Assembly (NCBI GenBank): GCA_024277675.1
Contig: JAJRUS010000030.1
Span: 1-63,188, forward strand
Direction of reading: 5' to 3'
From: a bacterium
GTDB taxonomy: Bacteria > SZUA-182 > SZUA-191 > JAJRXT01
Length of the DNA stretch: 63,188 bases
Under the pieces are notes generated by a model, which was given only the letters and a program-made list of their open reading frames with translations, was not told the DNA's origin and did not search any database. This document shows positions 1-44,959 of the stretch, piece by piece. Within the stretch, counting starts at the first letter, position 1. Every line of letters begins with the position of its first letter. The translations under genes and the position numbers were made by a program.

Positions 1-311
1 TCCATATCCTCCAGGGTATCGGTTACTACCTCAACAACATCGGTAAAATTACGGCAACCGGCAGCCGCCACATTGACCGCCAGCGAACCCAGGGTATCGG
101 TATCGACAGCATCCAAAGCCAGCTTATACCAGCCGGCGACAAGCTCCGTCCAGCTACCGTCAGATGGAGCGGCAAAGGCTCCCCCATGCTTGCTTAAAGT
201 TACGGTGGGACTTACAATACCCGTCTCCGGAGTATAGCCATCGGTTGCATCCACCAGGTAAACATATAGAAAGCTGCCGGTGGCCTGCTTGATTTGAGTT
301 ACGTTTTTCAT
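1..311 (-). CDS. Hypothetical phage structural/tail-region protein, 5' part only (runs off the window)
   Basis: Not in the ORF track. My translation from ATG at 311: MKNVTQIKQATGSFLYVYLVDATDGYTPETGIVSPTVTLSKHGGAFAAPSDGSWTELVAGWYKLALDAVDTDTLGSLAVNV...; beta-rich, open to position 1, follows the tape-measure-like gene. Confidence 0.7.
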   Translation of the reverse strand, partial: MKNVTQIKQATGSFLYVYLVDATDGYTPETGIVSPTVTLSKHGGAFAAPSDGSWTELVAGWYKLALDAVDTDTLGSLAVNVAAAGCRNFTDVVEVVTDTLEDM

Positions 312-351
312 TGCCTGCTCCTTATTTAATAACTGTGGCCTGCCGTTATTC

Positions 352-993
352 TTACCTGATGCTTCTTATAAGTTGATAGGTGCTACCCTGTGAATTAAGG
401 TCCTGATGCACCATATTCAACACCATATCCGCATTCTCGCTTAAGGCCTTGGTCAACTGCTGCTGCATAAATTCTTCGGAGAAGGCGTTTATGATATAAG
501 TCGGCCGTTCCCGTTGTTTTGTCTCACCCTCAAAACGCACCGGCACCCCTCCCCCTTTAAGCGGCACCACTGCTTCCGGGCTGCCGGCTTCGGCTACCAG
601 CCCCAGCGTGGGCCGGTTATACACCCCCCCGTGCTGCATGGGAGTAACCGGTATAAACCGACCGGGCATAATGCCGCCTTCGGCAAACGACATAAGCCCT
701 AAGGCCCCTTCTACTGCACCGGAGGCCGCTCTTTGAGCCACAATGCGCGACAGGTCATTCAAAAATCCGTCGGCAAAATCAGCAAAAGCGGCTTTGGCCG
801 ATTTAGCCTGAGTGGTGAAATCATACAAGGCATCGCCCAGATTCCGTTGTACAGCGGCCGCCTCAACGGCATAGCGATTCTGCCGGGTCATCACATCCTT
901 GATGTCGGCTAAAGCCCGGACTGACATCCGTCTTATCTCTTCCATGTCCGTGGTTTGCTCCCTTATCATAGCTGCTGCCATAACCAACCCCAT
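352..993 (-). CDS. Short tail tape-measure-like protein (C-terminal lambda-H-type region only, 213 aa)
   Basis: Ala-rich helical segment (DALYDFTTQAKSAKAAFADFADGFLNDLSRIVAQRA) followed by FAEGG...HGGVYNRPTLGLVAEAGSPEAVVPL, typical of tape measure C-termini; start codon uncertain. Confidence 0.75.
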   Translation of the reverse strand: MGLVMAAAMIREQTTDMEEIRRMSVRALADIKDVMTRQNRYAVEAAAVQRNLGDALYDFTTQAKSAKAAFADFADGFLNDLSRIVAQRAASGAVEGALGLMSFAEGGIMPGRFIPVTPMQHGGVYNRPTLGLVAEAGSPEAVVPLKGGGVPVRFEGETKQRERPTYIINAFSEEFMQQQLTKALSENADMVLNMVHQDLNSQGSTYQLIRSIR

Positions 994-1421
994 CCTTCAA
1001 GTTAACTGCTATATTAGTATCTCAGCTTGTGTAGCGGGCTGGCCCGCCTCCGTGTCCTCTGTGGTTTAAGTCTTTTTTTAATTACCTGCTTATATGTCTG
1101 TGTAACATGAGTTATCAAGTAATCAGCATGCTGCCTACTATTACATATTATAACCATTCTGTCAAATACGGTTACGTTACGCAAATAGCAAGGGCGCTAC
1201 CGTTATGGCGGCCTATGTTACAATTTGCAACACATGCTTAAAATAGCCCCTCTTTTTGCGCTTTTTCGCTTGTTTTTACACTATGCCGGATTTTCGGGAA
1301 CAGCAGCTATTATTTGATCAGCCCTTAAGCAAACTTAAGTTGCATTAAGCGTCTTCAATCGTTATACTGCTTTTTGAGAATACCATTCTTTAATAACAGA
1401 TAAAAATTCAAGGAAAACCAT

Positions 1422-2810
1422 ATGTGTCTGTCTGATCCTGTATTATCTGCATACGGAGTAGCCTCCAGCATACCGGCCCCCATAAACCGCATGATGGCCA
1501 GATTCGCCGGAAGCTTCAGGAGCGGGGTGGATATAAACCTGGGCGTGGGCTATGTAAATGAGGAAACCATCCCCCGGGATTTGATTCAGAGTGCGCTTAC
1601 CCAGGTGCTGGCTGATCCCGAAAAGTATAAAGTCGCCCTAAACTACGGCGGTCCCAAAGGCTCGCCCAACCTGATACAGTCGCTGCGTGATTTTCATATA
1701 ACCCGGAAGATAGGCGGTCTGACCGAAGATGTGCTTAACCGTAAAGAAATGATTATCGGCCCCAGCGGGGCCACCAGCTCATTAGAGGGCATTGCCCACA
1801 CCCTGAACAGGGGTATAGTGATTACCGACGATCCCAAATATTTTATCTATACCCACCTACTGGAACGCCTAGGTTTTGAGCTGCTGTCCGTGCCGCAGGA
1901 CTGCGATGGGATACAACCCGAATTGCTTAAGCAGAAAATAGCCGCCCTGGGAGAGCGCCAGCAGGAGATCAGCTTTGTTTATATAGTAACCATAAACAAT
2001 CCCACCGGCGCTATCCTTACCAATGAACGCCGCAGAGAGATTGTGCGCATAATCAGCGATGTATGCCGTAAGCAAAACCGGCGGATTCCCATTATCTTCG
2101 ATAAGGCTTATGAATTACTGATTCACCACCCGGCGGTACCCGCTCCGGAATCGGCCTTATTATATGATGAGCTTAATATTGTATATGAAGTGGGCAGTCT
2201 GTCTAAGATTGTGGCCCCTGCCCTGCGTATCGGTTACTTAATCGGCCCCCCCGGCGATTTCATAAACGCCCTGGTGCAGAAGACCAGCGATGTGGGCTTC
2301 AGCGCCCCCCTGATTACCCAGGAGATCGCCAGTTACTTTCTGGATCATCATATACAAGCACAACTGCAAAAGGTAAACCAGGGCTATCGGGCCAAGGCAG
2401 CCGCTATCAGCCGGTATATCGACACCGAGCTGCGCCCGTTAGGGGTGAGCTATTGCGGGGGACAGGCGGCATTTTACTACTACCTGACCCTGCCGGAAGG
2501 GATACACACCCATGAGGACTCACCCTTCCACCGCTTTTTAAACCGCAATACCGGTGATAAGCAAATAGATTTTTTAAATGGAGTTGAAAAGGGGCCTATG
2601 GTTTCTTATATTCCGGGCAGCTTTTGTGTACATGCCCAAGGTGATCTGGTGGAGCTGGGCAAACGCCAGTTCCGCATATCCTATAGCTTTGAAAGCTTAG
2701 AGAAGATTGAGGAAGCCCTGGGCTATTTCCGGCAGGCCATTTTGTTCTCTCAGCAAGCCACCTGCGGTGGGGCAATGAACCTGCTGTGGAGCAATGAAAA
2801 GATAGACTGA
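1422..2810 (+). CDS. PLP-dependent aminotransferase, class I/II (MocR/Aro8, 2-aminoadipate transaminase-like)
   Basis: INNPTG, IIFDKAY and the PLP-lysine motif SLSKIVAPALRIG; lies on the opposite strand inside the phage tail module. Confidence 0.85.
   Translation: MCLSDPVLSAYGVASSIPAPINRMMARFAGSFRSGVDINLGVGYVNEETIPRDLIQSALTQVLADPEKYKVALNYGGPKGSPNLIQSLRDFHITRKIGGLTEDVLNRKEMIIGPSGATSSLEGIAHTLNRGIVITDDPKYFIYTHLLERLGFELLSVPQDCDGIQPELLKQKIAALGERQQEISFVYIVTINNPTGAILTNERRREIVRIISDVCRKQNRRIPIIFDKAYELLIHHPAVPAPESALLYDELNIVYEVGSLSKIVAPALRIGYLIGPPGDFINALVQKTSDVGFSAPLITQEIASYFLDHHIQAQLQKVNQGYRAKAAAISRYIDTELRPLGVSYCGGQAAFYYYLTLPEGIHTHEDSPFHRFLNRNTGDKQIDFLNGVEKGPMVSYIPGSFCVHAQGDLVELGKRQFRISYSFESLEKIEEALGYFRQAILFSQQATCGGAMNLLWSNEKID
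2758..2779 (+). repeat. 22-bp dispersed repeat ccacctg(c/t)ggtggggcaatgaa, copy 1, within the aminotransferase 3' end
   Basis: 21/22 identical to 51177..51198; a degenerate tandem copy follows at about 2780-2800. Confidence 0.75.
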
Positions 2811-2837
2811 GTCAGGCATTGAACCTCATAAACCTGC

Positions 2838-3154
2838 TTAAGGCTCTCTTTGGAGATAATCCCCTATTTCCCGCTCTATTAATTGCATCGCCTGTAAGTA
2901 TTTATAGGGTTGCCCTGATAAGCCCCCCTCATGCAGCAAGAACCCCTTGCGATAATGCTGATACAGGGCCATAAATTCCCCGGTGGCTCTGCTTAACAGC
3001 CTGACCGGACAACGGGTTAAGCGCTGACCTTCAAATTCAAATTGCGCCTGGGGCGTTGTGCAACAGCCCGGTATATTTTCAGCTTAGCGGTGCATACCCC
3101 ACAGTCAAACCCTTCACCTTGCAGGGCCAGGTATACACCTAGGCGCAGTTTTTT
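2838..3154 (-). pseudogene. gpGT-like frameshift extension of the tail assembly chaperone, broken by a further 1-nt frameshift near 3068
   Basis: The -1 frame reads KLRLGVYLALQGEGFDCGVCTAKLKIYR and then stops at 3017. The conserved-looking remainder (GCCTTPQAQFEFEGQRLTRCP...YRKGFLLHEGGLSGQPYKYLQAMQLIERE) lies in the next frame and ends at 2838. Confidence 0.65.
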
Positions 3155-3543
3155 GCCTCATCCTCCGATAACCGGGAAGCAGAGCGAAAAGCCGCCGCCA
3201 GCTCAGCACGCCAGGCCGGGGGCAGTACCGCCAGAAACTCATCCTGCTTATCCCGCTCACTGGGCCAGGTGATATCTTCACCGGCCTCATTCTTTAGTCG
3301 TTCCACCCGGAGCAGACAACTGCGGATAAGCTCCGCCTCGGCTCTTCTATCGGGCCGGTATATAGTGCGCAGACTCTCACCCTGATTGGGATCGCCCTCA
3401 AACTCGATCTCATCCGCCATAGCATACTGAGTCGCCAGATCCGCCACCCCATACCACCACAGCGTCTGCTCATGGGCGGGCAACTTACGCTCTTCCCTTA
3501 ATACATATGGATACTCTTTACCGAAAATACGCACCACCGCCAT
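3139..3543 (-). CDS. Tail assembly chaperone (gpG-like), 134 aa
   Basis: RBS GAGGAGG before ATG at 3543 (the track start at 3732 is too far upstream); position downstream of tail genes; slippery heptamer just before the stop. Confidence 0.7.
   Translation of the reverse strand: MAVVRIFGKEYPYVLREERKLPAHEQTLWWYGVADLATQYAMADEIEFEGDPNQGESLRTIYRPDRRAEAELIRSCLLRVERLKNEAGEDITWPSERDKQDEFLAVLPPAWRAELAAAFRSASRLSEDEAKNCA
3148..3154 (-). promoter_or_regulatory. Programmed -1 frameshift site A_AAA_AAC
   Basis: GCA AAA AAC TGC GCC TAG: X_XXY_YYZ heptamer in the correct phase at the chaperone 3' end, as in lambda G/GT. Confidence 0.75.
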
Positions 3544-3601
3544 AAAACCTCCTCTTCTAATTTTATGCTGTTGATTTATCAAAACGGTAAATTTATTTAT
3601 T

Positions 3602-4057
3602 TTAAGCCGGGTTATAGCGAATATACTCATCCACCGACAAATGTATTTCACCCACATGGGCCAGAATACCGGCAAAGCGCCGCCGCATAACCTTGGCCAC
3701 CCTGGGGGGATCAGCCCCGAAACAACTTCCATTTAAGTTATTATTCTCTCGCAGCTTATCGCATATCTTTTCCAACAGATCACGGAAAACTTTTTCGCTT
3801 TCAGCGCTGTCCTTCTGCCCATATACCCCTTCAATTTTTATCAGGTGCTTAAGGATATTTACTACATTTGCGTGAATTTTTTCATCCGATTGCGGGCAGG
3901 TAATAACCCAAGCATTAAGCCGGTTATTATCATCAGTAAACAGCTTCAACAACGTCTTCCAGTCAACTGTCCAGCGGTCATAATCGTGTACTTTGCCCAC
4001 CCCGTCCACCAATTCAATGATAGTTTTTAATTGGGTTATGATATCTGACAGGCTCAT
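3602..4057 (-). CDS. Tail completion/terminator-like protein, paralog B
   Basis: Clear paralog of 6798..7256 (GKVHDYDRWTVDWKT; NLNGSC; AGILAH; EYIRYNPA); size and position fit a tail completion protein, but the function is inferred. Confidence 0.6.
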   Translation of the reverse strand: MSLSDIITQLKTIIELVDGVGKVHDYDRWTVDWKTLLKLFTDDNNRLNAWVITCPQSDEKIHANVVNILKHLIKIEGVYGQKDSAESEKVFRDLLEKICDKLRENNNLNGSCFGADPPRVAKVMRRRFAGILAHVGEIHLSVDEYIRYNPA

Positions 4058-4452
4058 TTTTGCTCCTCTTCCTTTCTTGTTTCATTGGAGCTGGAGGCAT
4101 AAGGATAATTAGCACAGCTATCCATTTCTATATGGATATGGTTGCGTGTTCTCCTTATAAAATGCTCACTTACTACCTGATAAAACGGCCCCAAGCGAAC
4201 TTGCAGATCATGAACCAACTCGTCCTGGGCATCATCAGGCATGGAATCTGTCCAGATATCTATGGCCTGCCCAAAGAAGTGAAAGGATGGATTTTCCTTT
4301 TCAATATCTTCAGGCTCGGGTTCTCTCCTCCCTGAAGTTATCGTGGGTGTAGTATAACCATAATTAGCCCAAGTATCATCCATTATGGGGAAGAGATCGT
4401 AAATTTCTTGGCACATGTCCTCCATATTAATTCCATGGGCTATATCCGGCAC
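4054..4452 (-). CDS. M15-family Zn peptidase (peptidoglycan endopeptidase/endolysin-like), no signal peptide
   Basis: ITSGRR, SFHFFGQAID and NHIHIE motifs give the His/Asp/His zinc ligands of peptidase M15; ATGA overlap with the downstream gene. Confidence 0.75.
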   Translation of the reverse strand: MPDIAHGINMEDMCQEIYDLFPIMDDTWANYGYTTPTITSGRREPEPEDIEKENPSFHFFGQAIDIWTDSMPDDAQDELVHDLQVRLGPFYQVVSEHFIRRTRNHIHIEMDSCANYPYASSSNETRKEEEQK

Positions 4453-4455
4453 TAA

Positions 4456-5166
4456 TCAATTACCTCCTTTTCCTGAATAACAGCCACCAGTCGGAATAAA
4501 CCTTTCCAGGCTGGGGCACCAAATATATACCTGCCGATCTTCACCTACTGAAAAATAACCAAAACAGGGAAGCTTATTGTTTTGGAACACTTCCTGATAA
4601 ATTTGCTCAACTTGTTGTTGTTCGATAGCTATCGAATCCATTTTCTTTCTATATTCAGAAAGGGGTACTGATTTTTTCCAAGTGTTGGATTTTTTCTCGC
4701 CCGCTATCTTTTCAAATTCAACCTGTTGCAGAAAAAACTTAATTCCTTCTTTAATCTCTTCTGTAGAACAAGCAAGTGAGTAAGTACATTTAAATTGACA
4801 CCGCTTATTGCTGGATGTGTCGAAACAGAGACTTCCCAGAAAGTTGGTTATAGAATCTCTGACCTTGGCCTCACTGTAATCCTCCCCATGGGAATCGGTA
4901 TATATCCGCCAGGTGTTCCAAGCATCAGAAAAGATTTCCTTCTCCTCTTTGGTGTTGGGATCAATCCGGTAGATACGGAAGGACACATCCAGATGAATCA
5001 ATTCCGGCCCGGAGTACGAAAACACCAGCTTCTCCTTCACCCCATCGCCGGTTAAATCCTTATACATTACCTCAGAGTGCTCAAGCCTGAGCTTATCGGG
5101 CCCAGCCGCACCCAGCAAAAACAGGCAGGATATTGTTACAGCAACACGTGCAGATATTTTTCTCAT
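4456..5166 (-). CDS. Secreted hypothetical protein (candidate hydrolase inhibitor/immunity protein)
   Basis: N-terminal signal peptide (MRKISARVAVTISCLFLLGAA), DLTGDGVKE Ca-loop-like motif, Lys-rich, several Cys. Confidence 0.6.
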   Translation of the reverse strand: MRKISARVAVTISCLFLLGAAGPDKLRLEHSEVMYKDLTGDGVKEKLVFSYSGPELIHLDVSFRIYRIDPNTKEEKEIFSDAWNTWRIYTDSHGEDYSEAKVRDSITNFLGSLCFDTSSNKRCQFKCTYSLACSTEEIKEGIKFFLQQVEFEKIAGEKKSNTWKKSVPLSEYRKKMDSIAIEQQQVEQIYQEVFQNNKLPCFGYFSVGEDRQVYIWCPSLERFIPTGGCYSGKGGN

Positions 5167-5197
5167 ATTATTTTCCCCGACAATCTACGCTCTTCCT

Positions 5198-5341
5198 TTA
5201 ATACACTATGGCAGCCCAAACCGTCCTGTCCCAGGATTGCCATTTTGCATCATCCCGGATAGTTTCTTTTAACAGCTCATCATCGGTAACCAGAGGGCTA
5301 TATTCACCCGGGACAGTAACCACATCTTTAATAGTGAGACT
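5198..5341 (-). pseudogene. Start-less fragment of a second SleB-like hydrolase allele (SLTIKDVVTVPGEYSPLVTDDELLKETIRDDAKWQSWDRTVWAAIVY*)
   Basis: 5216..5330 matches 6402..6516 with 3 mismatches in 115 bp; it diverges after RTVW and stops at 5198; an in-frame TGA lies immediately upstream. Confidence 0.8.
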
Positions 5342-5361
5342 TCAGAACCAACCGCTTTTAA

Positions 5362-5952
5362 TTAATTCTCACTAAACATGTTACTAAGCCACCATTTTCC
5401 ATCACGATAGATAAAGGATGGCGAAACGAAGGTTTCTTTCTCCCAAAATGGTTTCTTTCCTTCCCAGTTAAAACTTATATACCCCCAACTTAAATAATAT
5501 CCTCCTCTGAAGCGTTTTTTAATTTCTGCGTTTATCTTTAAATTCTTCACATTTATCAAATAATCTTTAATTGACTTCCACTCTCTGGCCTCTTTGCGGT
5601 ACCCCCTAACTTTTTCTTGATAGCACTTGCTGTTAAACAAACGACAATATTCAAAGCTGTTTTTATCCTTAAGTCTGGCTAATAGTTCGTTTTTGTCCAA
5701 GTAGTAATCAGCTCCTACTGCCACCCTTATGCTACCATGTAAAAAATTTGCTAATCTATCAACATCCTCATTTACAATTATATGGAATAATTCCTCTCCT
5801 ACTTTTTGCAACTCTGCCAATCTTTTGTAGTAGGTAGCCTTTTCCTCACCAGACAACAAGTCAAGTTGGTTCTCCTTCCCCCAAGATGTCCCCATTCCAA
5901 AAGTTAAGAATACAATCAGTAAGGCAGATTGCAAACAGCAACATTTTTTCAT
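5362..5952 (-). CDS. Secreted hypothetical protein (candidate immunity protein for the upstream M23 hydrolase)
   Basis: Signal peptide (MKKCCCLQSALLIVFLTFGMGTSWG), Lys-rich, visibly AT-rich DNA, start overlaps the M23 gene stop. Confidence 0.6.
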   Translation of the reverse strand: MKKCCCLQSALLIVFLTFGMGTSWGKENQLDLLSGEEKATYYKRLAELQKVGEELFHIIVNEDVDRLANFLHGSIRVAVGADYYLDKNELLARLKDKNSFEYCRLFNSKCYQEKVRGYRKEAREWKSIKDYLINVKNLKINAEIKKRFRGGYYLSWGYISFNWEGKKPFWEKETFVSPSFIYRDGKWWLSNMFSEN

Positions 5953-6776
5953 TATGGTAAATATTCCTCCGGGTTGACCCGATTATCAATGGTTCCATCC
6001 GGTGAAACCGTAAAATGTAAATGTGCTGCGGTACTTCGTCCACTTAAATCAACATGTCCAATTACCTGCCCCCTTTTTACCTCTTGCCCCTCTCTTACCG
6101 ACGGTGTCATATGATAATAACCGGTGTAATAGCCTCTGATACCTCTGATTATCACCCTATTTGCTCCTGTGTCATCACGACCTTTCTTCACTACTACCCC
6201 ACTTTCCGCAGCATATACTGCTTCACCTTTCGCCGCCTTAATATCAATACCTTTGTGCTCCTCTTCTTTTTCAACATTAAAAGGATCCGGCCTTGTACCA
6301 AACCCGGAAGTAATTTGTCTGCCCCTAACCGGCCACATGGGAGTAGAGTCTTTTTGCAGGGGATTGTCAAAATCCGGGGCGCCGGCCACATCGGTGGCAA
6401 TCCAAACCGTCCTGTCCCAGGATTCCCAGTTTGCATCATCCCGGATAGTCTCTTTTAACAGCTCATCATCGGTAACCAGAGGGCTATATTCACCCGGGAC
6501 AGTAACCACATCTTTATAAGTAGGGCCTGCCTGTCTTTCCCGGTGGCTTCTTATCTCCCAGGCCATGGTTCGTCTGGCTTCATCGCTTGGGCCTGCCCCC
6601 CAGAAGATGGCCTTCGCCAACCAGTATATATCTTCCGGGATAAATAATATAGCCCCATTTTTGAGGTATGTCCTGGGGTATTCCTCCTCCAGAATAGCCT
6701 TATCATACTCATTCAACATATTATAATACTGGCGCTCTGCTTGGGGCAGTACGTCGGGGAAGGTAATCTCGGACAT
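5952..6776 (-). CDS. Peptidoglycan hydrolase: N-terminal SleB/Hydrolase_2-like domain plus C-terminal M23 metallopeptidase, no signal peptide
   Basis: M23: ITSGFGTRPDP, HKGIDI, YYHM, STAAHLHF. N-domain: YWLAKAIFWGAG...MAWEIRSHR...TYKDVVTVPGEYS resembles SleB. Confidence 0.85.
   Translation of the reverse strand: MSEITFPDVLPQAERQYYNMLNEYDKAILEEEYPRTYLKNGAILFIPEDIYWLAKAIFWGAGPSDEARRTMAWEIRSHRERQAGPTYKDVVTVPGEYSPLVTDDELLKETIRDDANWESWDRTVWIATDVAGAPDFDNPLQKDSTPMWPVRGRQITSGFGTRPDPFNVEKEEEHKGIDIKAAKGEAVYAAESGVVVKKGRDDTGANRVIIRGIRGYYTGYYHMTPSVREGQEVKRGQVIGHVDLSGRSTAAHLHFTVSPDGTIDNRVNPEEYLP
6402..6516. repeat. 115-bp direct repeat, copy within the M23 gene (other copy 5216..5330)
   Basis: Direct comparison by eye: 112/115 identical. 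Confidence 0.9.
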
Positions 6777-6797
6777 TGTCTTTTCTCCTCTGGCTAT

Positions 6798-7256
6798 TTA
6801 AGCTGGGGTATACCGAATATACTCTTGCACTCTGAGGAGTATCTCGCAACGATGCGCAAGAATACCGGCATAGGGGCTGGGCGAGAGCACGCTTACCTGG
6901 GGTGGATCGCTGGTTAAGCAACTGCCGTTTAGGTTGTCATGGGTACGCAATACCGAGCGAATCCCCTCAATCAAATCCTGAAAAGCCTTTTCACTCTCTT
7001 TGCTATCTTTTAATCCATAATAGCCCTTGATGATAAACGCATGCGTGCTGATATTCACCGCTCCTGCGGCATGTAGCCGTTCCTGGGCGCCGCTACGCGT
7101 AATCACCCAACCATTGATCTTATTATCCGCATCCTTGAAGTAACTCAAGAAGGTCTTCCAGTCGGTAGTCCAGCGCTCAAAGTCATGTACCTTGCCGATG
7201 CCGGGCACGGTTTCCAGTAGATTTTTAATTTCGGTGCGTATTTCAGCCAGTCCCAT
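6798..7256 (-). CDS. Tail completion/terminator-like protein, paralog A
   Basis: GKVHDFERWTTDWKT...NGWVITR...EYIRYTPA; paralog of 3602..4057; adjacent to the tail tube gene. Confidence 0.6.
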   Translation of the reverse strand: MGLAEIRTEIKNLLETVPGIGKVHDFERWTTDWKTFLSYFKDADNKINGWVITRSGAQERLHAAGAVNISTHAFIIKGYYGLKDSKESEKAFQDLIEGIRSVLRTHDNLNGSCLTSDPPQVSVLSPSPYAGILAHRCEILLRVQEYIRYTPA

Positions 7257-7267
7257 TTGCGCCCCCC

Positions 7268-8194
7268 CTATGTAAGCTCAATCTTTAGCTCATCATCACC
7301 ATTATTGCGGTTGCACTCAAAATCAGCCCCCAGGGTGCGCGCCCTGCTGCGTTCGGCCAGTCCCAACTTGGTATAACGGCATTTGGGTGCGGTAATGGTT
7401 ACAATATTTCCGGCGATAGCTCCCAGGGCAAGGGTTATGGCGCCTTCACTGCCATTGCGCCATTTACTGTACCAATCATAATCGGCTACCAGGGTTAATT
7501 CAGGGTCCAGCGAGCCTGCGGGACGCCGGCCGGTTAATAAGGCACTGCTATAGCCGCTGGGCCGGTTTATATCAGAGCGTAATTGCAGGGTGTTGGCTAT
7601 GTCCAAATCCAGTTTTTCAATTAGTGCCGAGTAGCTGTCAACCGAAAAGCCGGCCGACAGAAACCGTTCCGGTTCGCTACTGTCGTAGCTAACCCCGGCA
7701 AGCATAACCGCATCGGTAACTTCAAAATCAGCCCCGCTAAATTCAAAGGCCAGCCTGCCCGGCTCACCGGCTGAGAGGTTCAGGCGCACCGTGCCCCTGG
7801 CTCCCCACAGCTTACTCAGTAAGCCGTCCATATAAAGCGCCAGAGTTATTGAGGGAATAGAACTGGAAGCCGGGGCATAGCTGACGCTGGTCGAGGGTAC
7901 AATCGTCTCATCAAAGCCGCAGGCCCGCATAAGCTCCCCCCACTCAGGGGCCACCCCCGGACTGCCGGAACCCTTAAGCTCTACTTCAAAAGCAAGCCTG
8001 GCCGAGCGGCGTCCGCTCAACGATTTATAGGCCGATAAATCCGAGCCGACTATTTTTCGCTGATGCATCTCCACCTGGGGCTTAAAGCCGGGATTAATCA
8101 CCAGGAGTGCATCCCCCGCACCCGGATTTTCAGCCGTACCCTCCAGCGCTTCCAGCTTAGCCGCCAGTTGGGTTTTTTGTAATAAAATCGGCAT
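7268..8194 (-). CDS. Phage tail tube protein (siphovirus-type major tail protein)
   Basis: 308 aa; FEVELKGSG..GVAPEWGELMRACG, RRPAGSLDPE and ITAPKCRY pattern of phage tube proteins. Confidence 0.8.
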   Translation of the reverse strand: MPILLQKTQLAAKLEALEGTAENPGAGDALLVINPGFKPQVEMHQRKIVGSDLSAYKSLSGRRSARLAFEVELKGSGSPGVAPEWGELMRACGFDETIVPSTSVSYAPASSSIPSITLALYMDGLLSKLWGARGTVRLNLSAGEPGRLAFEFSGADFEVTDAVMLAGVSYDSSEPERFLSAGFSVDSYSALIEKLDLDIANTLQLRSDINRPSGYSSALLTGRRPAGSLDPELTLVADYDWYSKWRNGSEGAITLALGAIAGNIVTITAPKCRYTKLGLAERSRARTLGADFECNRNNGDDELKIELT

Positions 8195-8219
8195 AATGTT
8201 CTCTCCATGTATTAAAGAT

Positions 8220-8300
8220 TTTCACCACAAAGACCACAAAGAACTTCTTAAAAAATCTATTTGTTTTTTCCTCTGTGATCTTTGTGCTCTTTGTGGTAAA
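8220..8300. repeat. REP-like imperfect palindrome (caccacaaagaccacaaaga...tctttgtgctctttgtggt)
   Basis: Inverted arms visible; related half-copies at about 1051-1068 and 32772-32930. Confidence 0.7.
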
Positions 8301-8309
8301 TACTTCAGT

Positions 8310-8984
8310 TTATCTCTGTTTTCTGGGATGGTTCAGCCTATCCCCACCCCAGGGGTAATCCACATCCAGGTCTTTGACAGCCGAAGCGGCGCCGGGGCCT
8401 TTCTGCTTACCCATAAAATTGTTATATCTTTGTTGTAACTCTTTAGCCCGCTGGGCATAGGCATTTGATTTACCATGATAATCCACCACATCCGCCTCAA
8501 TGGTTGAATCAGAAGTCTGGGCGTAAATGCGAGATAAAGCCTCGCAACATAGAGCCGAGGCCAACAAAACCAGACCATCCTGCATGGAAGCCGGAATCTC
8601 ATCCAGGCTTGCCTCATCATATGGGGTGGTGTAGCTGAGGCGCAGGATTTCACCAGCTTGTGGAGTATGATTTATAAGTAGCAACTTCTCCCCGACAGTG
8701 GATTTATAAATGCTATAATCGGCGGCCTCCAGATAAACCGGCGCCCGTTTCCCGGTGGGATATTCCACTTTCTGCAGCCAGGAGACGCCGGCTTGCCAGT
8801 CAGTCGGCAGATTATACTGATAACCGCCGTCAGCGACAATATCGGCCACCCGCATTCGGGGATAATCCCTGCTGAAATAACTCAACGCCTCCAGGATAAA
8901 ATTATCGGTCTCCCCGGTTTTGAGCTTACCGGCCTCATCCTGCATGAGCCGTCTGACCTTAGTTCTATAATCTATGATTGACAT
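8310..8984 (-). CDS. Head-tail adaptor/connector protein
   Basis: Position after the capsid; helical N- and C-termini with a central beta insert (YQYNLPTDW...LRLSYTTPY; ASALCCEALS...). Confidence 0.6.
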   Translation of the reverse strand: MSIIDYRTKVRRLMQDEAGKLKTGETDNFILEALSYFSRDYPRMRVADIVADGGYQYNLPTDWQAGVSWLQKVEYPTGKRAPVYLEAADYSIYKSTVGEKLLLINHTPQAGEILRLSYTTPYDEASLDEIPASMQDGLVLLASALCCEALSRIYAQTSDSTIEADVVDYHGKSNAYAQRAKELQQRYNNFMGKQKGPGAASAVKDLDVDYPWGGDRLNHPRKQR

Positions 8985-9035
8985 TAAAATGCGGTCTCTT
9001 TCTTAAAGGTTACGATAATTTTGATTAAAGCAGGC

Positions 9036-9218
9036 CTAGCCTGCCTCGCCGCGCCATAGTTCACGGTCATACAACAATCTCTGCCTGAGCATACACTGCT
9101 CATCCACCGTATCGTACAGCGGGCAACCGGCATTAGTATTCTCGGCTAAGATAGCGGCACAGGTTTTTGAACTGGTAGCCGCAGATGAAAACGGGCAGTT
9201 ATAAGTAGGGGCTGCCAT
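9036..9218 (-). CDS. Small Cys-rich phage protein (60 aa)
   Basis: RBS GGAGG before ATG at 9218; four Cys (NCPF..TC..GCPL..QC). Confidence 0.55.
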   Translation of the reverse strand: MAAPTYNCPFSSAATSSKTCAAILAENTNAGCPLYDTVDEQCMLRQRLLYDRELWRGEAG

Positions 9219-9255
9219 AATATAATTCCTCCATAAAAAGTGCATTATACATAAA

Positions 9256-9278
9256 GGGGAGGCCATATATGCCTCCCC
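9256..9278 (-). terminator. Putative rho-independent terminator after the capsid gene
   Basis: 8-bp GC stem ggggaggc/gcctcccc followed by TTTAT on the minus strand. Confidence 0.55.
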
Positions 9279-9288
9279 CGAACAATCA

Positions 9289-11211
9289 TTATGCTACTAC
9301 CGATTTGTACATGCCGCGATGATCCAGCACACAGATACCGTAAATGTGGCGTATTTTATAAGTGATCTTATCCTGAGTGAACATCGAACCGGCAGTCGGC
9401 TGATCCTGAACGAATAATTCCGGTTCCTCGTTACCGTTAAAGAAACCGACCTCAACAGTGGGACAGTCCGCCGGGTCGCACACCACCGCCCAGTCGTTGG
9501 CATCCGTCCAGTAAGGCAGCACAATTACGCCCAGCCCATATGCTGAATGGATATTCGGCTCAGTACCGGCATTATTGGCAGCCCCTACCAAGGTGGACGA
9601 AGTGCTTAGACGATAGGCCGAATCCTCAAGCTCCAGCGGCACCAGCAGCCACTTAGCGGTAAGCCCCAGAATATCCACGCTATCCCCGTAAGCCGCCTGC
9701 TCACTCATGGTGATCTTGGCCGAGAGCAGGGAGTTAGCGCTTAAAGCGCTGCTGCCTAAGTTACTGTGCCCGGCATCGAATATGGGCAGCGCATCATATG
9801 AGGTGGCGTTATTGTTAACGATAATGTCAAACACGCTTTTATACAGGGTTCTGGCGGCCGCCCGGCCCAGTTTCTGGTGAATGTGGCGGATGGCCCCGAT
9901 ATCATCATTGGCGATCATCTCCAGGGTTAAATCCTCCAGACCACCTTTCTTGGCAATGCTGAAGGTGGCTTCCTCGTCACCGGGAGAGGTCAGGTTCTGG
10001 TAGCTGGCCGACTCGTTCACCGCTGGCAGAGTGCCGTAACCGCCGACCCGCATGCGCCGGTTAGTGCTGAAATCCCGCACTGCGGTCACATCGGATACAA
10101 TTTTACGCCAGTCATCCAACCCCGGTGTATTGTATTCAGCCAACATGCGGCGGGTGATGGACTCACCCAGAATCTCGGCCCAGGAGCTGCTGGTCAGCGA
10201 TTCGGTAAACTTGGTCAGATTACGGGCTTCCCGCAACTGCCCGCTTAAGGCATTGTCACCGGTGATAGTCACATAGGCTTCCCTGAAGGAGCGAAAGCGG
10301 GGCACTCCGGCTATATCCCGGTTGGCAAAAAAACCATCCAGCGCCTTTAAGGTACGCTCACCTCCCCCCAGGCCCAGCTCTACCTTAGTTGCTCCGGCTC
10401 CCTTGACCCGGTGAGTGCCGGAGATACGGGCCAGGAAATCCCGCTCATCTGAAATCGCCTCCCGTAGTTGAGTTTCATTGAAAACTCTCGAGGCAAAGCG
10501 GCGGCTTATCTTCTGCTGAGCCAATTGCGGCAGCCCGCTATTTTGCAGCGCTTCAACCAGCATTAATCTGCATTTAGCCTCCGCCAGCTCATTTTCCAGG
10601 CGTGACAGCCGCACATCGGAATCAGCGGCTGAGTCTGGCTGTTCAGCCACTTGTTGTTCAACAAAATCTCCCACATTTTCCAGCATAATTTCCTCCTCCT
10701 CATGTTTTGGACCAACACCGGCAACCAACTTCTCAATCCGGCCGCCAGCCGCTGGATTAACCACCACATCCACCAGATCCACCCGCTGAATACGGTCTAC
10801 CCATTTAACAAAACCCTTCTTTTCTCTAACCAGCCGGCTTACCCCCTGGGCCACTATAGAAAAGCCCACAATGTCATGCTTGCCCCGCTGCCAGGCATCC
10901 AGCATCAATACCCGCAGCCACTCGGCCGCCTCGGATATATGAAAGCCGGCCTTTATCTTGCCGTCCACAAACTGCGGCTCACTAAACCAACCCACAATAT
11001 TTTTTACATCTTTATTTATATATTTAATGTGCTGCTCATCCGCCCGGGCCAGCGCCCGCACCCCGGAAAAAAGCGGAACCGCTTCTTTCAGCACCGGCGG
11101 GGGATAATAGAAGCCATTACCGGACTTACCGGCTTCGATGATCACTACCTCCCACTCCCGCCCGGCTTTAGCCTGCGACTCTATAAGCGGTACATAAGAA
11201 TCAAGCTGCAT
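9289..11211 (-). CDS. Prohead protease-scaffold-major capsid fusion (Mu gpT-like capsid domain), 640 aa
   Basis: N-terminal protease motifs (EAGKSGNGFYY, EQH, GFSI, VDVVVNPAAGG), coiled-coil linker, C-terminal gpT-like LLVPLELE...WTDANDW...VEVGFFNG..EPE...ITYKIRHIYG. Confidence 0.85.
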   Translation of the reverse strand: MQLDSYVPLIESQAKAGREWEVVIIEAGKSGNGFYYPPPVLKEAVPLFSGVRALARADEQHIKYINKDVKNIVGWFSEPQFVDGKIKAGFHISEAAEWLRVLMLDAWQRGKHDIVGFSIVAQGVSRLVREKKGFVKWVDRIQRVDLVDVVVNPAAGGRIEKLVAGVGPKHEEEEIMLENVGDFVEQQVAEQPDSAADSDVRLSRLENELAEAKCRLMLVEALQNSGLPQLAQQKISRRFASRVFNETQLREAISDERDFLARISGTHRVKGAGATKVELGLGGGERTLKALDGFFANRDIAGVPRFRSFREAYVTITGDNALSGQLREARNLTKFTESLTSSSWAEILGESITRRMLAEYNTPGLDDWRKIVSDVTAVRDFSTNRRMRVGGYGTLPAVNESASYQNLTSPGDEEATFSIAKKGGLEDLTLEMIANDDIGAIRHIHQKLGRAAARTLYKSVFDIIVNNNATSYDALPIFDAGHSNLGSSALSANSLLSAKITMSEQAAYGDSVDILGLTAKWLLVPLELEDSAYRLSTSSTLVGAANNAGTEPNIHSAYGLGVIVLPYWTDANDWAVVCDPADCPTVEVGFFNGNEEPELFVQDQPTAGSMFTQDKITYKIRHIYGICVLDHRGMYKSVVA

Positions 11212-11214
11212 CAG

Positions 11215-11373
11215 TTAATCCCTCCCCCTCCGCCAGATTAATTTTTGACCGTGGCCGGTCACCAGTACCAGCCGGTCGCCATATTCCTTCCAGGCCAGCA
11301 GATCATCCCGTTTAAGCTTAAGTGCTTTCAGGGCCGATTTAAGCTCTCCCTGGCGCTCTTTCTTAATATCCAT
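11215..11373 (-). CDS. Small phage protein (52 aa) between portal and capsid
   Basis: Not in the track (<60 aa). RBS AAGGAG, then ATG: MDIKKERQGELKSALKALKLKRDDLLAWKEYGDRLVLVTGHGQKLIWRRGRD; fills the gap exactly. Confidence 0.65.
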   Translation of the reverse strand: MDIKKERQGELKSALKALKLKRDDLLAWKEYGDRLVLVTGHGQKLIWRRGRD

Positions 11374-11387
11374 TTCATCTCCTTCGG

Positions 11388-12734
11388 TTATGCTGGAGTT
11401 TTTAACTCCCGTTCAACATCTATATCCACCCCCAGCCGGGCGGCCAGTATGCCGAATACCTGGGCGGCGGTACGCTTGCTAACCCAACCCCGATCCTGCG
11501 CTGTCTGCAAGGCAACAGTTACCCGCTGCAGGGAGCTGGTCAGGGCGCCTATATCTTTAAGCGATATCTCCGGCATAATAAGGCTGAAGGGGGACATATC
11601 CCCATTACTCAGCTCAGCCGGTAGTGTCCGGTGGATGATGGCCTGGTCTATACAGAACCTGAATATATGCTCCAGCATGTATTTAAAATAGCGCTGGCGG
11701 GCAGCCAGACGTTTTATGGTAGGCTCGCCCATCTCGGCGGCGGTGGCCCGGTTGGTCTCTCCCCCTTCGGCAAACCAGTGCTCCGGAAAACCGGCGCCCC
11801 CCAGAATATGATTTTTTAAAAGGCGCGCCTCGCTTGATGCGTCATTGGCCTTTAGGTCCGGGGCTACCGCCCTATACTCCACATTTTCGTTATGCGCCCG
11901 CACCGAACCGGGTTTGGGGGCCGGGGTATTGCGCAGGAAGCGCTCAATCTCCTCCTGGGTCAGCCCTTTTAAGGTAACATCCCACACAAAGGCATTTATC
12001 AGCGCCGCCCGATCCAGCCGGTTGAACAAAAACTCATCATAGCCTGAAAGCCAGTCGGCCAGGGCCAGTAAATCAGAACGTCCGCGGGTGGAGTTTGAGA
12101 CACTGTTTACCTTGAAGAAAAAACACTCGCCGGTCAGATAGCCATAGGTTTCACTCATCGGGTCTTCATCCAGTTGGACTACCTTCAGCATCCGGCCCGC
12201 TTGTGTGCCTGTACCCTTTAGCTTGACATGGGTGATAAGCTCGCAATTATCGGCATCGGCCAGCACCTCATCGATGTGCAGCGGATCGATATAGCCCAGG
12301 CGTACCTGGCCGTTGTATTCATTAACTGCCGCCGTATAACACTGCTCGCCGTATAATCCCAGCTCCAGCACCTTCTGATGCTGCTTTAAGTCCCATAGAT
12401 TTACCGGATCGCGCCAGAAGGCGTCCAGGACACCTTTAACGGCATCATCGGCAGCCTCATAGGTTATTCCCTCGCCCACCACAAAATCCTTGGTCAGCTC
12501 AATAATACGATGGGCCAATGGATTGGTTTCATATAAATGGTAGGCGATCTGGAGCATCCGCTCCTGCTTTAAGGGAGATAAATCCTTGTTTTGACTGCCG
12601 GTCAGTTTACGGTACAAATGCTCATCGGCATCGATCCCGCCGCCACCCGGCAGGGCCTCGCGAATGCCCTGCTTAATCTGCCGGTTTATATAGTTACCGG
12701 CAACTAACTTCAATAATTTATGCTGCATCCCCAT
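11388..12734 (-). CDS. Phage portal protein
   Basis: 448 aa directly after the terminase; YETNPLAHRIIELTKDFVVGEG, RGRSDL, GAGFPEHWF, ATAAEM..PT. Confidence 0.85.
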   Translation of the reverse strand: MGMQHKLLKLVAGNYINRQIKQGIREALPGGGGIDADEHLYRKLTGSQNKDLSPLKQERMLQIAYHLYETNPLAHRIIELTKDFVVGEGITYEAADDAVKGVLDAFWRDPVNLWDLKQHQKVLELGLYGEQCYTAAVNEYNGQVRLGYIDPLHIDEVLADADNCELITHVKLKGTGTQAGRMLKVVQLDEDPMSETYGYLTGECFFFKVNSVSNSTRGRSDLLALADWLSGYDEFLFNRLDRAALINAFVWDVTLKGLTQEEIERFLRNTPAPKPGSVRAHNENVEYRAVAPDLKANDASSEARLLKNHILGGAGFPEHWFAEGGETNRATAAEMGEPTIKRLAARQRYFKYMLEHIFRFCIDQAIIHRTLPAELSNGDMSPFSLIMPEISLKDIGALTSSLQRVTVALQTAQDRGWVSKRTAAQVFGILAARLGVDIDVERELKTPA

Positions 12735-12738
12735 TAGC

Positions 12739-14514
12739 TTACCCCCATACCCTTTTGCGATTCGACCGATACCAGCCCTTGGGCGGCTCTAAACCACTTA
12801 TTGCCGCCGGTACAAAATGCATGAGCGCCCGATATAGATAAGTCAGCGCCTTTAGCATATCGATATGCCCTGAACCGGCAGGCTTGATAAGCCGCATCTT
12901 ATCATGTCCCTTAATTTCATAGCGGCAACTTTTAAGCTGCCGGCAAAGCTCGGCATATTCGGCGGAATCATCGTTGCGAAATATCTTAAGTCGCTCATTA
13001 TTAATCAGCGCCAACAGGCCATAACAATCCTGGCTGACCGAATTACTATCGGCGGCATATGCGGTAACTCCGGGATAATGTTTAGCCAGGTACTTGGCAA
13101 TCTGCTCGCCCACCCCCCTGGCATCCACCACGGCCGCCTTGGGCCGCCACAGCTTAAGCAGCTTAAGCAGGCTTGATTGCTGACCCGGCAGACCGCTTGG
13201 CTCATCTCCCAGAGATTTACCCGTCCACCAATAAATATCCACCAGCCGGCAGGCCGGATAGTCATTCCGCAGATTCCCCGGCTCAATCTCAAATACCAGC
13301 GCTACCGTACTGTCCCTGGCCCCCCTGCTTTTCTTGGCCGGATCATCCTCTTCGGCCTCGGCCTCACCGGCAATATCGATGCTGACTATATATTCCCGGC
13401 CATCCCGGGGAGCGGCATAGCGCTGATGTTCAGCATTAAGCAGGTTGCTGATATGATGAGCCTTCAGATACCCACCCAGCGTGTCCACATCCACCAGATC
13501 ATATTGAGTGAGAATCACCGGATGATCAGCCCCCAATTTGCGCAGCCGTTCCTCATAGTGCCTGGCATACTGGGGCAACAATTCACACCAGATGTGGGCC
13601 GGATAGGAAAGATTTAATTCAGGATTATGCTCCTGGTTATGCTGTACATATTCATATAATAAATCCTGTTTATCGGCGGCCACTCCCCACATGATAATCG
13701 GTACATTATGATAGGCCGCCATAGGGCCGAAATCCTCCTCGAACTTGCCCTTGTCCACCTTATGCGCCTCATCTATATCCAGCGCAATCGAGGCGGTAGA
13801 GCCCACCACATTGGCGCCCTTGTCGGTGGACAGGAAAACTAGCTGCGCCTGACCGTGTTCCAAAATAAAACCCTCCCGGCGCTTATAATCATTATTGATT
13901 AAGGGATCCATTTTTAAAAATTTCTCCACCCGCTGTTTTGAATTTATCATCTGAGGTTTCCAGGTGGGTGCGGTGCGAATGTAAGTACCGCCCTGCTCCC
14001 GGTAATTAATAAGCGCCCGCACACATAACATAGCCGAACATTCATTCTTCATGGTCTGTCTGGCGCTGCGCACCGTGATTACTTTGCCGGTTTTGTTTGT
14101 AATGTGCTCTTCAATTAAACTGATAGCCTCAGCCTGAGGCGGAAAAAGCGGCAAATTATATAATGTAGTACGATGAAAAACCACATCACTAAGCGCTCTC
14201 TCCACCAGAGACTCAAGCCGATTGGCCTGAGAATCATCCCCTATATTATCCATTTGCCGGGCCAGGCGCTGCCCCTTCTGGGCAATGCTCAGAGAACTTG
14301 AAAGCCTCAAAATATCCAGGGGTTTTATCTTATCCTCGTCCGTCGGCTGACTAAGCTCATCCAGCCGGCACAGATGATCAATTATTTTTTGTATCAATAA
14401 TTGATAGGCCTTGAAATGCTCGATGTTAATCTGTGCTATATCATGCTCATTTACCCCTGGGGTGATGCCCGGCTTTTTGGTTCTCCTCCCGCATTTTTTT
14501 TTATTTTTAGCCAT
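12739..14514 (-). CDS. Terminase large subunit with an ~110-aa N-terminal extension
   Basis: ATPase: PPQ adenine motif, SARQTMKNE (atypical Walker A), LDIDEAH (Walker B). Nuclease acidic motifs: SIDIAG, VVDARGVG, HIDMLKAL. Confidence 0.85.
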   Translation of the reverse strand: MAKNKKKCGRRTKKPGITPGVNEHDIAQINIEHFKAYQLLIQKIIDHLCRLDELSQPTDEDKIKPLDILRLSSSLSIAQKGQRLARQMDNIGDDSQANRLESLVERALSDVVFHRTTLYNLPLFPPQAEAISLIEEHITNKTGKVITVRSARQTMKNECSAMLCVRALINYREQGGTYIRTAPTWKPQMINSKQRVEKFLKMDPLINNDYKRREGFILEHGQAQLVFLSTDKGANVVGSTASIALDIDEAHKVDKGKFEEDFGPMAAYHNVPIIMWGVAADKQDLLYEYVQHNQEHNPELNLSYPAHIWCELLPQYARHYEERLRKLGADHPVILTQYDLVDVDTLGGYLKAHHISNLLNAEHQRYAAPRDGREYIVSIDIAGEAEAEEDDPAKKSRGARDSTVALVFEIEPGNLRNDYPACRLVDIYWWTGKSLGDEPSGLPGQQSSLLKLLKLWRPKAAVVDARGVGEQIAKYLAKHYPGVTAYAADSNSVSQDCYGLLALINNERLKIFRNDDSAEYAELCRQLKSCRYEIKGHDKMRLIKPAGSGHIDMLKALTYLYRALMHFVPAAISGLEPPKGWYRSNRKRVWG

Positions 14515-29784: not shown

Positions 29785-29917
29785 CCTATAAAACAATCAC
29801 TCGCCAAGACCGGGTTAACAAATTTAACCGGATTATGGTATAGTATTGGGGAAAATCGGCCAGCAGTCGGCGATTATATATGGAGCAAGTAGGCTGATCT
29901 TTAGGGGGTTTACCGGG

Positions 29918-32808: not shown

Positions 32809-32930
32809 CTATAAGGAAGGGTCATTGACCCAAACCATGAAACCAGGAACAGGCATAGCTGTTTTTAAAAAGGGGCTGTGCCCCTTCTTGGCTTCCTGGT
32901 TTCCTAATGAAAAATTCTTTGTGCTCTCTG
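32772..32930. repeat. Nested REP-like repeats overlapping the GT2 3' end
   Basis: Outer arms accacagagaacacagag / ctttgtgctctctg; inner ctataaggaa...ttcctggtttccta family, also at about 51098 and 58033. Confidence 0.65.
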
Positions 32931-32948
32931 CATTCTGGCAATTAAAAT

Positions 32949-33977: not shown

Positions 33978-33981
33978 CATC

Positions 33982-35097: not shown

Positions 35098-35103
35098 CAT
35101 ATT

Positions 35104-36231: not shown

Positions 36232-36248
36232 AAGGAATTAGTTTTAAA

Positions 36249-38482: not shown

Positions 38483-38520
38483 TTTGTTCGGCGGGAAAAT
38501 CACTCATGAGAGGATAGCAT

Positions 38521-38781: not shown

Positions 38782-38787
38782 GAGATT

Positions 38788-44924: not shown

Positions 44925-44959
44925 CCGTCTATAAAGAAATGTTAGCGGGTTAAACTGAA

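Follow-up and report, generated by a model that had tools for sequence, protein, structure and literature searches.

The window analysed here is the whole 63,188-nucleotide (nt) stretch of contig JAJRUS010000030.1 (assembly GCA_024277675.1), from a bacterium of the GTDB lineage SZUA-182. Between positions 3602 and 7256 it carries a cassette of genes for candidate cell wall enzymes and exported proteins, lying within the tail operon of a phage-like element. An earlier note, made from the sequence alone, had read this cassette as a phage-tail-associated array of antibacterial effectors and immunity proteins. The genes follow the order tail tube, terminator A, 274-aa protein, 196-aa protein, 127-nt fragment, 236-aa protein, 132-aa protein, terminator B and chaperone. 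The open reading frame (ORF) map agrees with the order, common orientation and junctions described in the note: every cassette gene is on the minus strand, the 274-aa/196-aa and 132-aa/terminator B junctions overlap, and 3 nt separate the 236-aa and 132-aa genes. The features of the cassette and its two flanks are as follows.

7268-8194, minus strand: tail tube gene (308 aa), the upstream flank of the cassette; Pfam Phage_tube_2, E=8e-16
6798-7256, minus strand: tail terminator A, A152 (152 aa), with a gpU-type fold
5952-6776, minus strand: 274-aa hydrolase, whole ORF
6357-6776, minus strand: first 140 residues of the 274-aa protein, forming a truncated module of SleB-like type (Hydrolase_2-related)
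5952-6356, minus strand: C-terminal M23 metallopeptidase of the 274-aa protein, a candidate toxin domain
5362-5952, minus strand: 196-aa exported NTF2-like protein, candidate immunity protein for the M23 domain
5209-5335: second copy of the stretch encoding residues 86-128 of the 274-aa protein, in direct repeat with 6395-6521
5198-5323, minus strand: 41-codon fragment ORF, which includes a second copy of an inner stretch of the hydrolase gene
4456-5166, minus strand: 236-aa exported Cys-rich protein, candidate second immunity protein
4054-4452, minus strand: 132-aa acidic protein with LAS/M15-like motifs, candidate second effector
3602-4057, minus strand: tail terminator B, B151 (151 aa)
3139-3543, minus strand: tail assembly chaperone-like gene (134 aa), the downstream flank of the cassette

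Both flanks are tail genes, as had been claimed. The tube gene is identified by its Phage_tube_2 match, and the chaperone-like gene is homologous to a 118-aa gene that precedes the tape measure gene in one related element (L004) and is 91% identical to its counterpart in another (L008). Neither hydrolase has an N-terminal hydrophobic segment and both are acidic (pI 5.1 for the 274-aa and 4.4 for the 132-aa protein), in keeping with their earlier description as signal-less, acidic enzymes. Signal-peptide-like N-termini are present in both partners; the basic character also ascribed to them applies to the 196-aa protein (pI 9.1) but not to the 236-aa protein (pI 6.4). A scan of positions 2800-8400 for promoters and transcriptional terminators returned counts within chance expectation. 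Among sequencing runs, only two from hydrothermal vents (typed 'DNA?') contain a few percent of the words of the sequence, with no RNA among them.

The M23 domain and the 196-aa protein family

The C-terminal part of the 274-aa protein is a clear M23 domain (Pfam, E=7e-25) with its HxxxD and HxH motifs intact (HKGID at residue 174 and HLH at residue 252). The N-terminal 140 residues gave no Pfam match of their own. They are 45% identical (E=4e-34) to a 190-aa Hydrolase_2 (SleB-type) protein encoded at the same operon position in the related element L002, and the similarity stops approximately 50 residues before the end of that protein. The M23 part has no counterpart in the L002 homologue. Searching the PDB with the sequence of the SleB-like module returned no match, and its alignment with the L002 protein is ambiguous around 'EAR', where a catalytic glutamate was sought. 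Of the earlier designation as a SleB-M23 hydrolase, the M23 half stands, while the SleB half comes down to a truncated module linked through the L002 protein.

Base composition changes within the gene. The GC content at third codon positions (GC3) is 0.56 over residues 1-140, which is backbone-like, against 0.35 for the M23 part and 0.39 across the 196-aa gene; overall GC is 0.51 in the N-terminal part and 0.36 in the 196-aa gene. Comparison of the region with itself revealed a 127-nt direct repeat with sharp boundaries (5209-5335 versus 6395-6521, 94% identity), one copy of which lies in the intergenic region between the 196-aa and 236-aa genes and covers residues 86-128 of the 274-aa protein. 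The orphan hydrolase fragment pointed out in the earlier note is thereby confirmed. The low-GC block that contains the M23 part and the 196-aa gene (5336-6394) is flanked on both sides by copies of this repeat. From its sequence and composition, the 274-aa protein is a chimera of a backbone-like, truncated SleB-like N-terminus and an M23 peptidase. The GC3 shift and the bracketing repeat suggest that a unit of toxin domain and immunity gene was joined to a resident gene and that a duplicated stub was left behind, which would be the polymorphic-toxin mode of cassette swapping. A variable C-terminal candidate toxin domain on a conserved N-terminus is seen when the 274-aa protein is set beside its L002 homologue and a remnant in L033. 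No trafficking module (Rhs/PAAR/VgrG, two-partner secretion, LXG, MuF etc.) was found in the 274-aa or the 132-aa protein using Pfam, NCBIfam and PHROGs.

A word-indexed homology search with the 196-aa protein returned only the query itself. A full HMMER scan of 1.8 billion representative proteins identified 20 distant homologues (27-35% identity, E 9e-13 to 2.5e-7), mostly of approximately 170-200 aa, nearly all of which have a signal peptide or lipobox, and which have a YCxLFxxxC motif in common. Structure prediction, which the earlier note had suggested for this protein, gave a confident result: the AlphaFold2 model of the family has a mean predicted local distance difference test score (pLDDT) of 86 and an NTF2-like fold, and its top PDB matches are all NTF2, SnoaL or scytalone-dehydratase folds (best E 2.5e-3). 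A BFVD fold search with the same model gave no significant match. NTF2-fold immunity families are known in polymorphic toxin systems (PMC3482391).

To place the family, genomic context was fetched for four of the homologues. P0037 (contig L036) lies 16 nt behind an ORF that begins with 37 residues matching the closing part of Rhs_assc_core (TIGR03696, 39.3 bits against a cut-off of 32.5) and otherwise consists of an M23 domain 35% identical to that of the 274-aa protein. P0043 (L039 and four sister contigs, L040-L043) is found 22 nt behind the gene for a YD-repeat protein, the C-terminus of which runs from ...DPMNYVDPSGT through a Pro-rich linker into an M23 domain. P0039 (L038) has an M23-like ORF directly upstream, and in the neighbourhood of P0038 (L037) an M23 gene is absent. 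In three independent contigs, then, a 196-family gene stands directly behind M23, and in two of them the M23 domain is the C-terminal toxin domain of an Rhs/YD protein. No further 196-family copies, as in paralogue arrays, lie close to the homologues.

In these contexts the 196-aa family occupies the canonical immunity slot of Rhs C-terminal M23 toxins. The window has the same layout, with the 196-aa gene directly downstream of the M23 domain and overlapping the stop codon of the 274-aa gene, where a cognate immunity gene would be placed. By homology, the closest real link of the cassette is with Rhs C-terminal toxin/immunity cassettes and not with Tae/Tai of type VI secretion systems (T6SS). 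The proposal of an effector/immunity array is strengthened to the extent that the 196-aa family is exported, NTF2-like and found behind Rhs M23 toxin domains, while the likeness to Tae/Tai that was also invoked is an analogy.

FGE-sulfatase-domain genes follow the Rhs-M23/immunity pair in L039 (3651-4457) and L040 (1275-2081). A lone terminator-family gene in L030 (10001-10459, 70% identical to A152) sits among host genes and adjoins a gene of the same kind. These FGE-sulfatase neighbours in L030, L039 and L040 may be a coincidence or a common neighbourhood.

The second pair, the terminators and the slot in related elements

The 236-aa protein has a signal peptide and four Cys residues that are invariant in its family, members of which were found only in related elements (L008, L033 and L034/L035). 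With GC of 0.43 in the 236-aa gene and 0.44 in terminator B, the 236-aa, 132-aa and B151 genes make up another low-GC block, adjoining a chaperone gene of 0.57. The 132-aa protein contains the motifs SGRR at residue 40, SFHFFGQAID at 56 (H-x6-D) and HIHIE at 105, all of which are kept in its one full-length homologue, in L008. It matches PHROG 894 'endolysin' weakly (E=1e-4 and 6e-6); there was no match in Pfam, NCBIfam or the PDB, the last tried with the sequence alone and as a profile, nor any tblastn match among phages or plasmids. The M15 peptidase named in the earlier note is thus backed by its LAS-type motifs and the weak PHROG match, while Pfam, NCBIfam and the PDB lend it no support. 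The 236-aa/132-aa candidate pair most likely arrived together with the second terminator paralogue.

A152 and B151 are paralogues (53% identity, E=1e-59). The AlphaFold2 model of their family has a pLDDT of 88, and the top Foldseek matches are lambda gpU, T5 p142 and the pyocin/diffocin collar (E~1e-5); the matches to 3fzb, 8bcu and 6u5f have a probability of 1.0 and TM-scores up to 0.74. Since the model matches tail terminators, the label 'completion' that the two genes had been given is right, and by fold both are tail terminators of the lambda gpU type. A152 is 74-75% identical to the terminator of L002, which also precedes a SleB-like gene. Terminator B is 87% identical to the L008 copy, with a ratio of nonsynonymous to synonymous substitution rates (dN/dS) of 0.06 between the two, and a truncated copy is present in L033. 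Because terminator identity mostly tracks that of the head genes, identity alone does not decide whether a terminator travels with its effector. In scans of viral contigs, neither the terminator nor the 236-aa family nor the SleB-like N-terminus gave a match.

Related elements, with head genes 57-85% identical to those of the window, come from vent, groundwater and sediment metagenomes and metagenome-assembled genomes (MAGs). L002/L006 and L008 belong to 'Dive96' MAGs and L004/L007 to Candidatus Schekmanbacteria; L003, L031 and L033 are others. In several relatives a different gene set follows the terminator.

L002: terminator, SleB-type protein of 190 aa and, overlapping it, a 279-aa protein that bears a transmembrane segment
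L011 and L033: terminator, Tlde1/YkuD-like enzyme (146 and 157 aa), convergent exported 140-aa protein
L004: terminator, Tlde1/YkuD-like enzyme, convergent exported protein; the trio sits after the portal gene
L032: terminator, 194-aa protein, NlpC/P60 protein (137 aa), terminator, paralogue of the 194-aa protein

The convergent exported partners in L011, L033 and L004 range from 140 to 189 aa. As in the window, the terminator-adjacent wall enzymes of the relatives are acidic and signal-less, and each has a different exported partner. Profile comparisons among the partner families (196 aa, 140/189 aa, 236 aa and the 279-aa protein of L002) showed no relationship, which indicates that the partners are unrelated families and not one immunity family. 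Behind both terminators of L032 (666-1250 and 2142-2729) lies an acidic, signal-less family of ~195 aa with no database match, which may be a new effector family. The L004 unit is adjoined by a PIN/MazE toxin-antitoxin pair on the opposite strand (7580-8223).

Comparison with L008 provides the closest view of the second block. The window order of 236-like, 132-like, terminator B, chaperone and aminotransferase genes recurs in L008, and the 236-aa and 132-aa proteins are 59% and 52% identical between the two elements, compared with 87-91% for B151, the chaperone and the aminotransferase; synonymous divergence (dS) is also higher in the cassette. In L033, decayed copies of the 236-aa, 132-aa and terminator B genes lie behind the tube gene. 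The same element has an intact unit of terminator, Tlde1-like enzyme and partner, inserted between two genes that are adjacent in L031 and followed by a remnant of the N-terminus of the SleB-like gene. L034/L035 have two tandem 236-family genes behind the second chaperone-position gene. In L004 the tube homologue is directly followed by chaperones, a short tape measure and DUF2460, and the cultured phage Mae-JY22 and more distant metagenomic relatives have terminator, tube and chaperones without a cassette. The 308-aa Phage_tube_2 gene is wholly absent from L031 and L010, in which the terminator stands between the adaptor-like gene and the chaperone (L031 5914-6680, L010 545-1285).

The neighbourhood comparison that the earlier note had proposed thus bears out a polymorphic locus: cassette content differs among the window, L002, L008, L011, L032 and L033, with displaced remnants in the window and in L033.

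The carrier element

Read from right to left, the element encodes a large terminase, a portal, a 640-aa capsid protein (Phage_capsid_4), a Cys-rich 59-aa protein, a 224-aa adaptor-like protein and the tube. Beyond the cassette and the chaperone are the following genes, and then a tail gene that runs past the left edge of the window.

2838-3138, minus strand: second chaperone-position gene, CxxC-containing, frameshifted
1422-2810, plus strand: class I/II aminotransferase gene; Pfam Aminotran_1_2, E=4e-22
352-993, minus strand: short tape measure (213 aa); PHROG tape-measure families, with Tape_meas_lam_C just below the cut-off

The tape measure is 36% identical to a 227-aa protein of L004, which precedes DUF2460. 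The second chaperone-position gene is homologous to a 102-aa gene of L004; it is an intact 100-aa ORF in L008 and occupies two frames in the window, a split that could reflect a pseudogene, an assembly error or a programmed frameshift. The aminotransferase gene lies between the chaperone genes and the tape measure, and its L008 counterpart (2283-3620) has the same place and orientation, with 87% amino acid identity and dN/dS of 0.08. The retention of a metabolic gene within a tail operon is unusual. The Cys-rich protein of ~59 aa (9042-9218, minus strand) is the most conserved protein of the element, being 90% identical to its counterparts in L002 and L003. Between the adaptor-like and tube genes, which are 115 nt apart, lies a 22-nt inverted repeat (8221-8300, 91% complementary, 36-nt spacer), which may be regulatory or a terminator hairpin.

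Fuller relatives continue from a tape measure of 190-340 aa to DUF2460, a BR0599-type hub, an NlpC/P60 peptidase and a very large distal protein; DUF2460, BR0599 and NlpC/P60 are seen in L004, L031 and L033, and the corresponding part of the window element lies beyond position 1. This gene order corresponds, as far as the genes can be matched, to the tail plan of the gene transfer agent (GTA) of Rhodobacter capsulatus (RcGTA). Host housekeeping genes (a TPR protein, a release-factor gene and lnt) start right after the terminase, as they do in L002 and L003, and the annotated parts of the window past the element (15-24 kb and 53-61 kb) contain housekeeping genes. A long run of same-strand ORFs, mostly of ~340-420 aa, occupies positions 29846-46201 (plus strand).

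No small transmembrane proteins, such as holins would be, were seen in positions 1-14500 of the window or in the tail modules of L031 and L033. The earlier statement that holin and spanin genes are lacking holds for that range of the window, the element itself continuing past the left window edge. No T6SS apparatus or carrier (Hcp/VgrG/PAAR) was seen in the parts of the window annotated past the element (15-24 kb and 53-61 kb), and the candidate effectors have no such carrier domain. There is no sheath gene such as would mark an extracellular contractile injection system (eCIS) or Photorhabdus virulence cassette (PVC); with its tube, chaperones and short tape measure, the tail is of the non-contractile type.

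For the genes of the portal, capsid, adaptor-like protein, tube, terminator and chaperone, dN/dS lies in the range 0.06-0.15. This strong purifying selection, together with the aminotransferase insertion common to L008, suggests that the element is long resident and maintained. Its earlier description as possibly domesticated fits these observations, as only structural genes are visible, host genes abut the terminase, dN/dS is low and relatives have RcGTA-type tail genes.

Readings of the locus

On balance, we lean toward reading the region as a cargo slot, swappable by recombination, that adjoins the tail-terminator gene of a siphovirus-derived, RcGTA-like cluster and holds polymorphic wall-enzyme/immunity cassettes that are probably carried by the particle. 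Two pairs would be involved: the 274-aa SleB-like-M23 endopeptidase with its translationally coupled 196-aa exported NTF2-like immunity protein, and the exported Cys-rich 236-aa protein with the 132-aa LAS-type peptidase-like enzyme. The signal-less enzymes would be co-expressed with the late structural proteins, loaded into the particle or released alongside it, and would act in the periplasm of the cell that the particle hits. The exported partners would bind and neutralise the enzymes in cells that carry the element, so that the outcome would be antibacterial, and the cassettes would turn over via recombination, like polymorphic toxin loci.

A precedent for delivery is offered by RcGTA, in which a peptidase of ~150 residues is probably located in the tail channel and ejected into the recipient periplasm ahead of the DNA (PMC7296036). 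The enzymes at the slot are mostly of 130-160 aa. Because the relatives already have a canonical g14-like NlpC/P60 peptidase, the terminator-adjacent enzymes are extra, and a cargo role is favoured over a simple entry role. That a partner family at the slot is found elsewhere in the immunity slot behind Rhs toxins suggests that a phage-like particle may carry antibacterial cargo.

Several points weigh against this proposal. A few enzyme molecules per particle may be insufficient to kill a cell. The Tlde1 matches in relatives score 21-30 bits, below the Pfam gathering score of 30.1. In the 236-aa/132-aa pair the partner is upstream of the enzyme, the pairing is by analogy and the enzyme call is weak; the partner of the 236-aa protein might instead be the lost SleB-like gene whose fragment precedes it. 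L037 has a 196-family member without a nearby M23 gene. The window element may be impaired, with its frameshifted chaperone-position gene and an aminotransferase gene interrupting the tail module, and some relatives have no tail or a split tube gene.

More tentatively, GTA-like headed, non-contractile particles from uncultivated bacteria may double as interbacterial weapons, with small wall-degrading effectors loaded in the tail and ejected into the target periplasm, the terminator paralogues acting as effector-specific loading adaptors and the terminator-effector-immunity triads being the unit that moves. The L033 terminator gene, which moved with a Tlde1-like enzyme and its partner, suggests such a triad, as does terminator B, which has the foreign composition of its own cassette. 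Terminators also cluster by the type of enzyme that follows, which is a weak hint because their identity tracks the head genes as well.

The most serious rival to the cargo slot predicts the same gene anatomy, and we judge it rather unlikely. Here the hydrolases would be virion-associated entry lysins and the partners Spackle-like periplasmic inhibitors for superinfection exclusion, with the polymorphism reflecting an arms race between entry and exclusion and not killing. T4 Spackle inhibits the gp5 tail lysozyme, and the cassette would resemble that system in having a periplasmic protein of phage origin that neutralises a wall hydrolase of the tail; gp5 and Spackle differ from the cassette in being a single fixed pair with unlinked genes, serving superinfection exclusion, and have no homology to the proteins described here. 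The genes studied here do lie within a tail operon, the M23 domains of cultured phages are found chiefly in proteins of the virion, among them tape measures and Brochothrix NF5 gp16, and RcGTA probably ejects its peptidase into the recipient periplasm (PMC7296036). However, an entry peptidase of the canonical g14-like NlpC/P60 type is already at its usual place in the relatives, the slot also holds Tlde1/YkuD-like domains, which belong to a toxin family not known for wall opening, and the ties of the 196-aa family are to Rhs toxins rather than to phage entry.

It is unlikely that genuine toxin/immunity modules merely hitch-hike, independently of any particle, at a tolerant site in a prophage that is decaying or domesticated, with delivery by another route (T6SS or release by lysis) or retention mainly for their immunity genes. 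Such hitch-hiking would agree with the foreign composition of the blocks, the M23/196-family pairs outside phage contexts, the lone terminator gene in host DNA (L030), the signs of decay in the window and its relatives, and a terminator identity that mostly tracks the head genes. It would not explain why the association with terminators recurs at three operon positions and on several backbones, why the window genes are co-oriented and translationally coupled with late genes, why the N-terminal partner of the toxin domain is a module conserved across these elements and not an Rhs, PAAR or VgrG carrier, or why the 236-aa family is found only in such elements.

Least probable is a lysis cassette in which the hydrolases would serve as endolysins and their partners, whether exported or anchored in the membrane, as holin-, antiholin- or spanin-like factors. 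In its favour, the wall hydrolases are signal-less with PHROG 'endolysin' matches, neither the window nor L031/L033 shows any other lysis gene, and the 279-aa partner in L002 has the topology of T4 holin T, in which a single transmembrane segment joins a short tail in the cytoplasm to a large domain in the periplasm. Against it, the 196-aa family is cleaved or lipidated, globular and NTF2-like, being neither a hole-former nor a coiled-coil or proline-rich spanin, and occurs behind Rhs toxins, the partners of the Tlde1-like enzymes are convergent and point away from the late operon, and two different enzyme/partner pairs with remnants are unlike a fixed lysis module.

Returning to the cargo slot, comparison with known systems shows what it has in common with each. 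Like the Rhs/YD cassettes (Zhang et al. 2012, PMC3482391), the locus has a variable C-terminal M23 domain behind a conserved N-terminus, a coupled candidate immunity gene directly downstream from the same NTF2-fold family that follows Rhs M23 toxins, and apparent swapping as toxin and immunity units with homologous stubs or remnants. It differs in having no Rhs/YD repeats, PAAR or VgrG, the carrier being a truncated SleB-like module in a tail operon. As far as the element is visible, RcGTA (PMC7296036) is likewise a structural-genes-only head-tail cluster in host DNA, with a tape measure of ~210-230 aa, genes for DUF2460, a BR0599 hub and NlpC/P60 (here in relatives), and a small signal-less wall peptidase, probably tail-channel-borne in RcGTA and known here from genes alone. 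In contrast, RcGTA has one fixed peptidase, no cognate exported inhibitor, no cassette polymorphism and no duplicated terminators, and the hosts here are uncultivated vent and groundwater bacteria and not Alphaproteobacteria. The signal-less wall enzymes with exported immunity proteins recall T6SS Tae/Tai and Tlde1/Tldi1, and a Tlde1-like domain is present in the slot of relatives; the differences are that no T6SS carrier domains occur here and that the Tlde1 matches stay under the Pfam gathering score. MuF-fused polymorphic toxins of temperate phages are fusions to head proteins and act mostly in the cytoplasm. They too are toxin/immunity modules inside a phage morphogenesis operon and are presumed to travel in the particle, whereas the candidate effectors here are wall-targeting, free-standing or fused to the SleB-like module, and placed in the tail operon by terminator genes.

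Considering that the trafficking domains are absent and that the tail operon is of the siphovirus type, the locus falls outside the Rhs, T6SS, MuF and eCIS families. Its logic, as read from gene content, nevertheless appears to be that of a polymorphic toxin/immunity locus, with one immunity family common to Rhs toxins.

The known carriers of polymorphic toxin/immunity cassettes are Rhs proteins, contact-dependent inhibition systems, T6SS and phage MuF proteins, and the tails of phages and GTAs are known to include wall peptidases as fixed components. If our reading is correct, the locus would unite both as a swappable wall-toxin/immunity slot within a GTA-like tail operon. It would also add a new family of exported, NTF2-like immunity proteins against M23 toxins and provide a function for duplicated tail-terminator genes. 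Delivery of protein cargo by domesticated siphovirus-type particles would become directly testable, with killing set against exclusion. Should the mobile triads of terminator, effector and immunity protein be real, they would be a siphovirus counterpart of the Hcp/VgrG-effector-immunity islands of T6SS.

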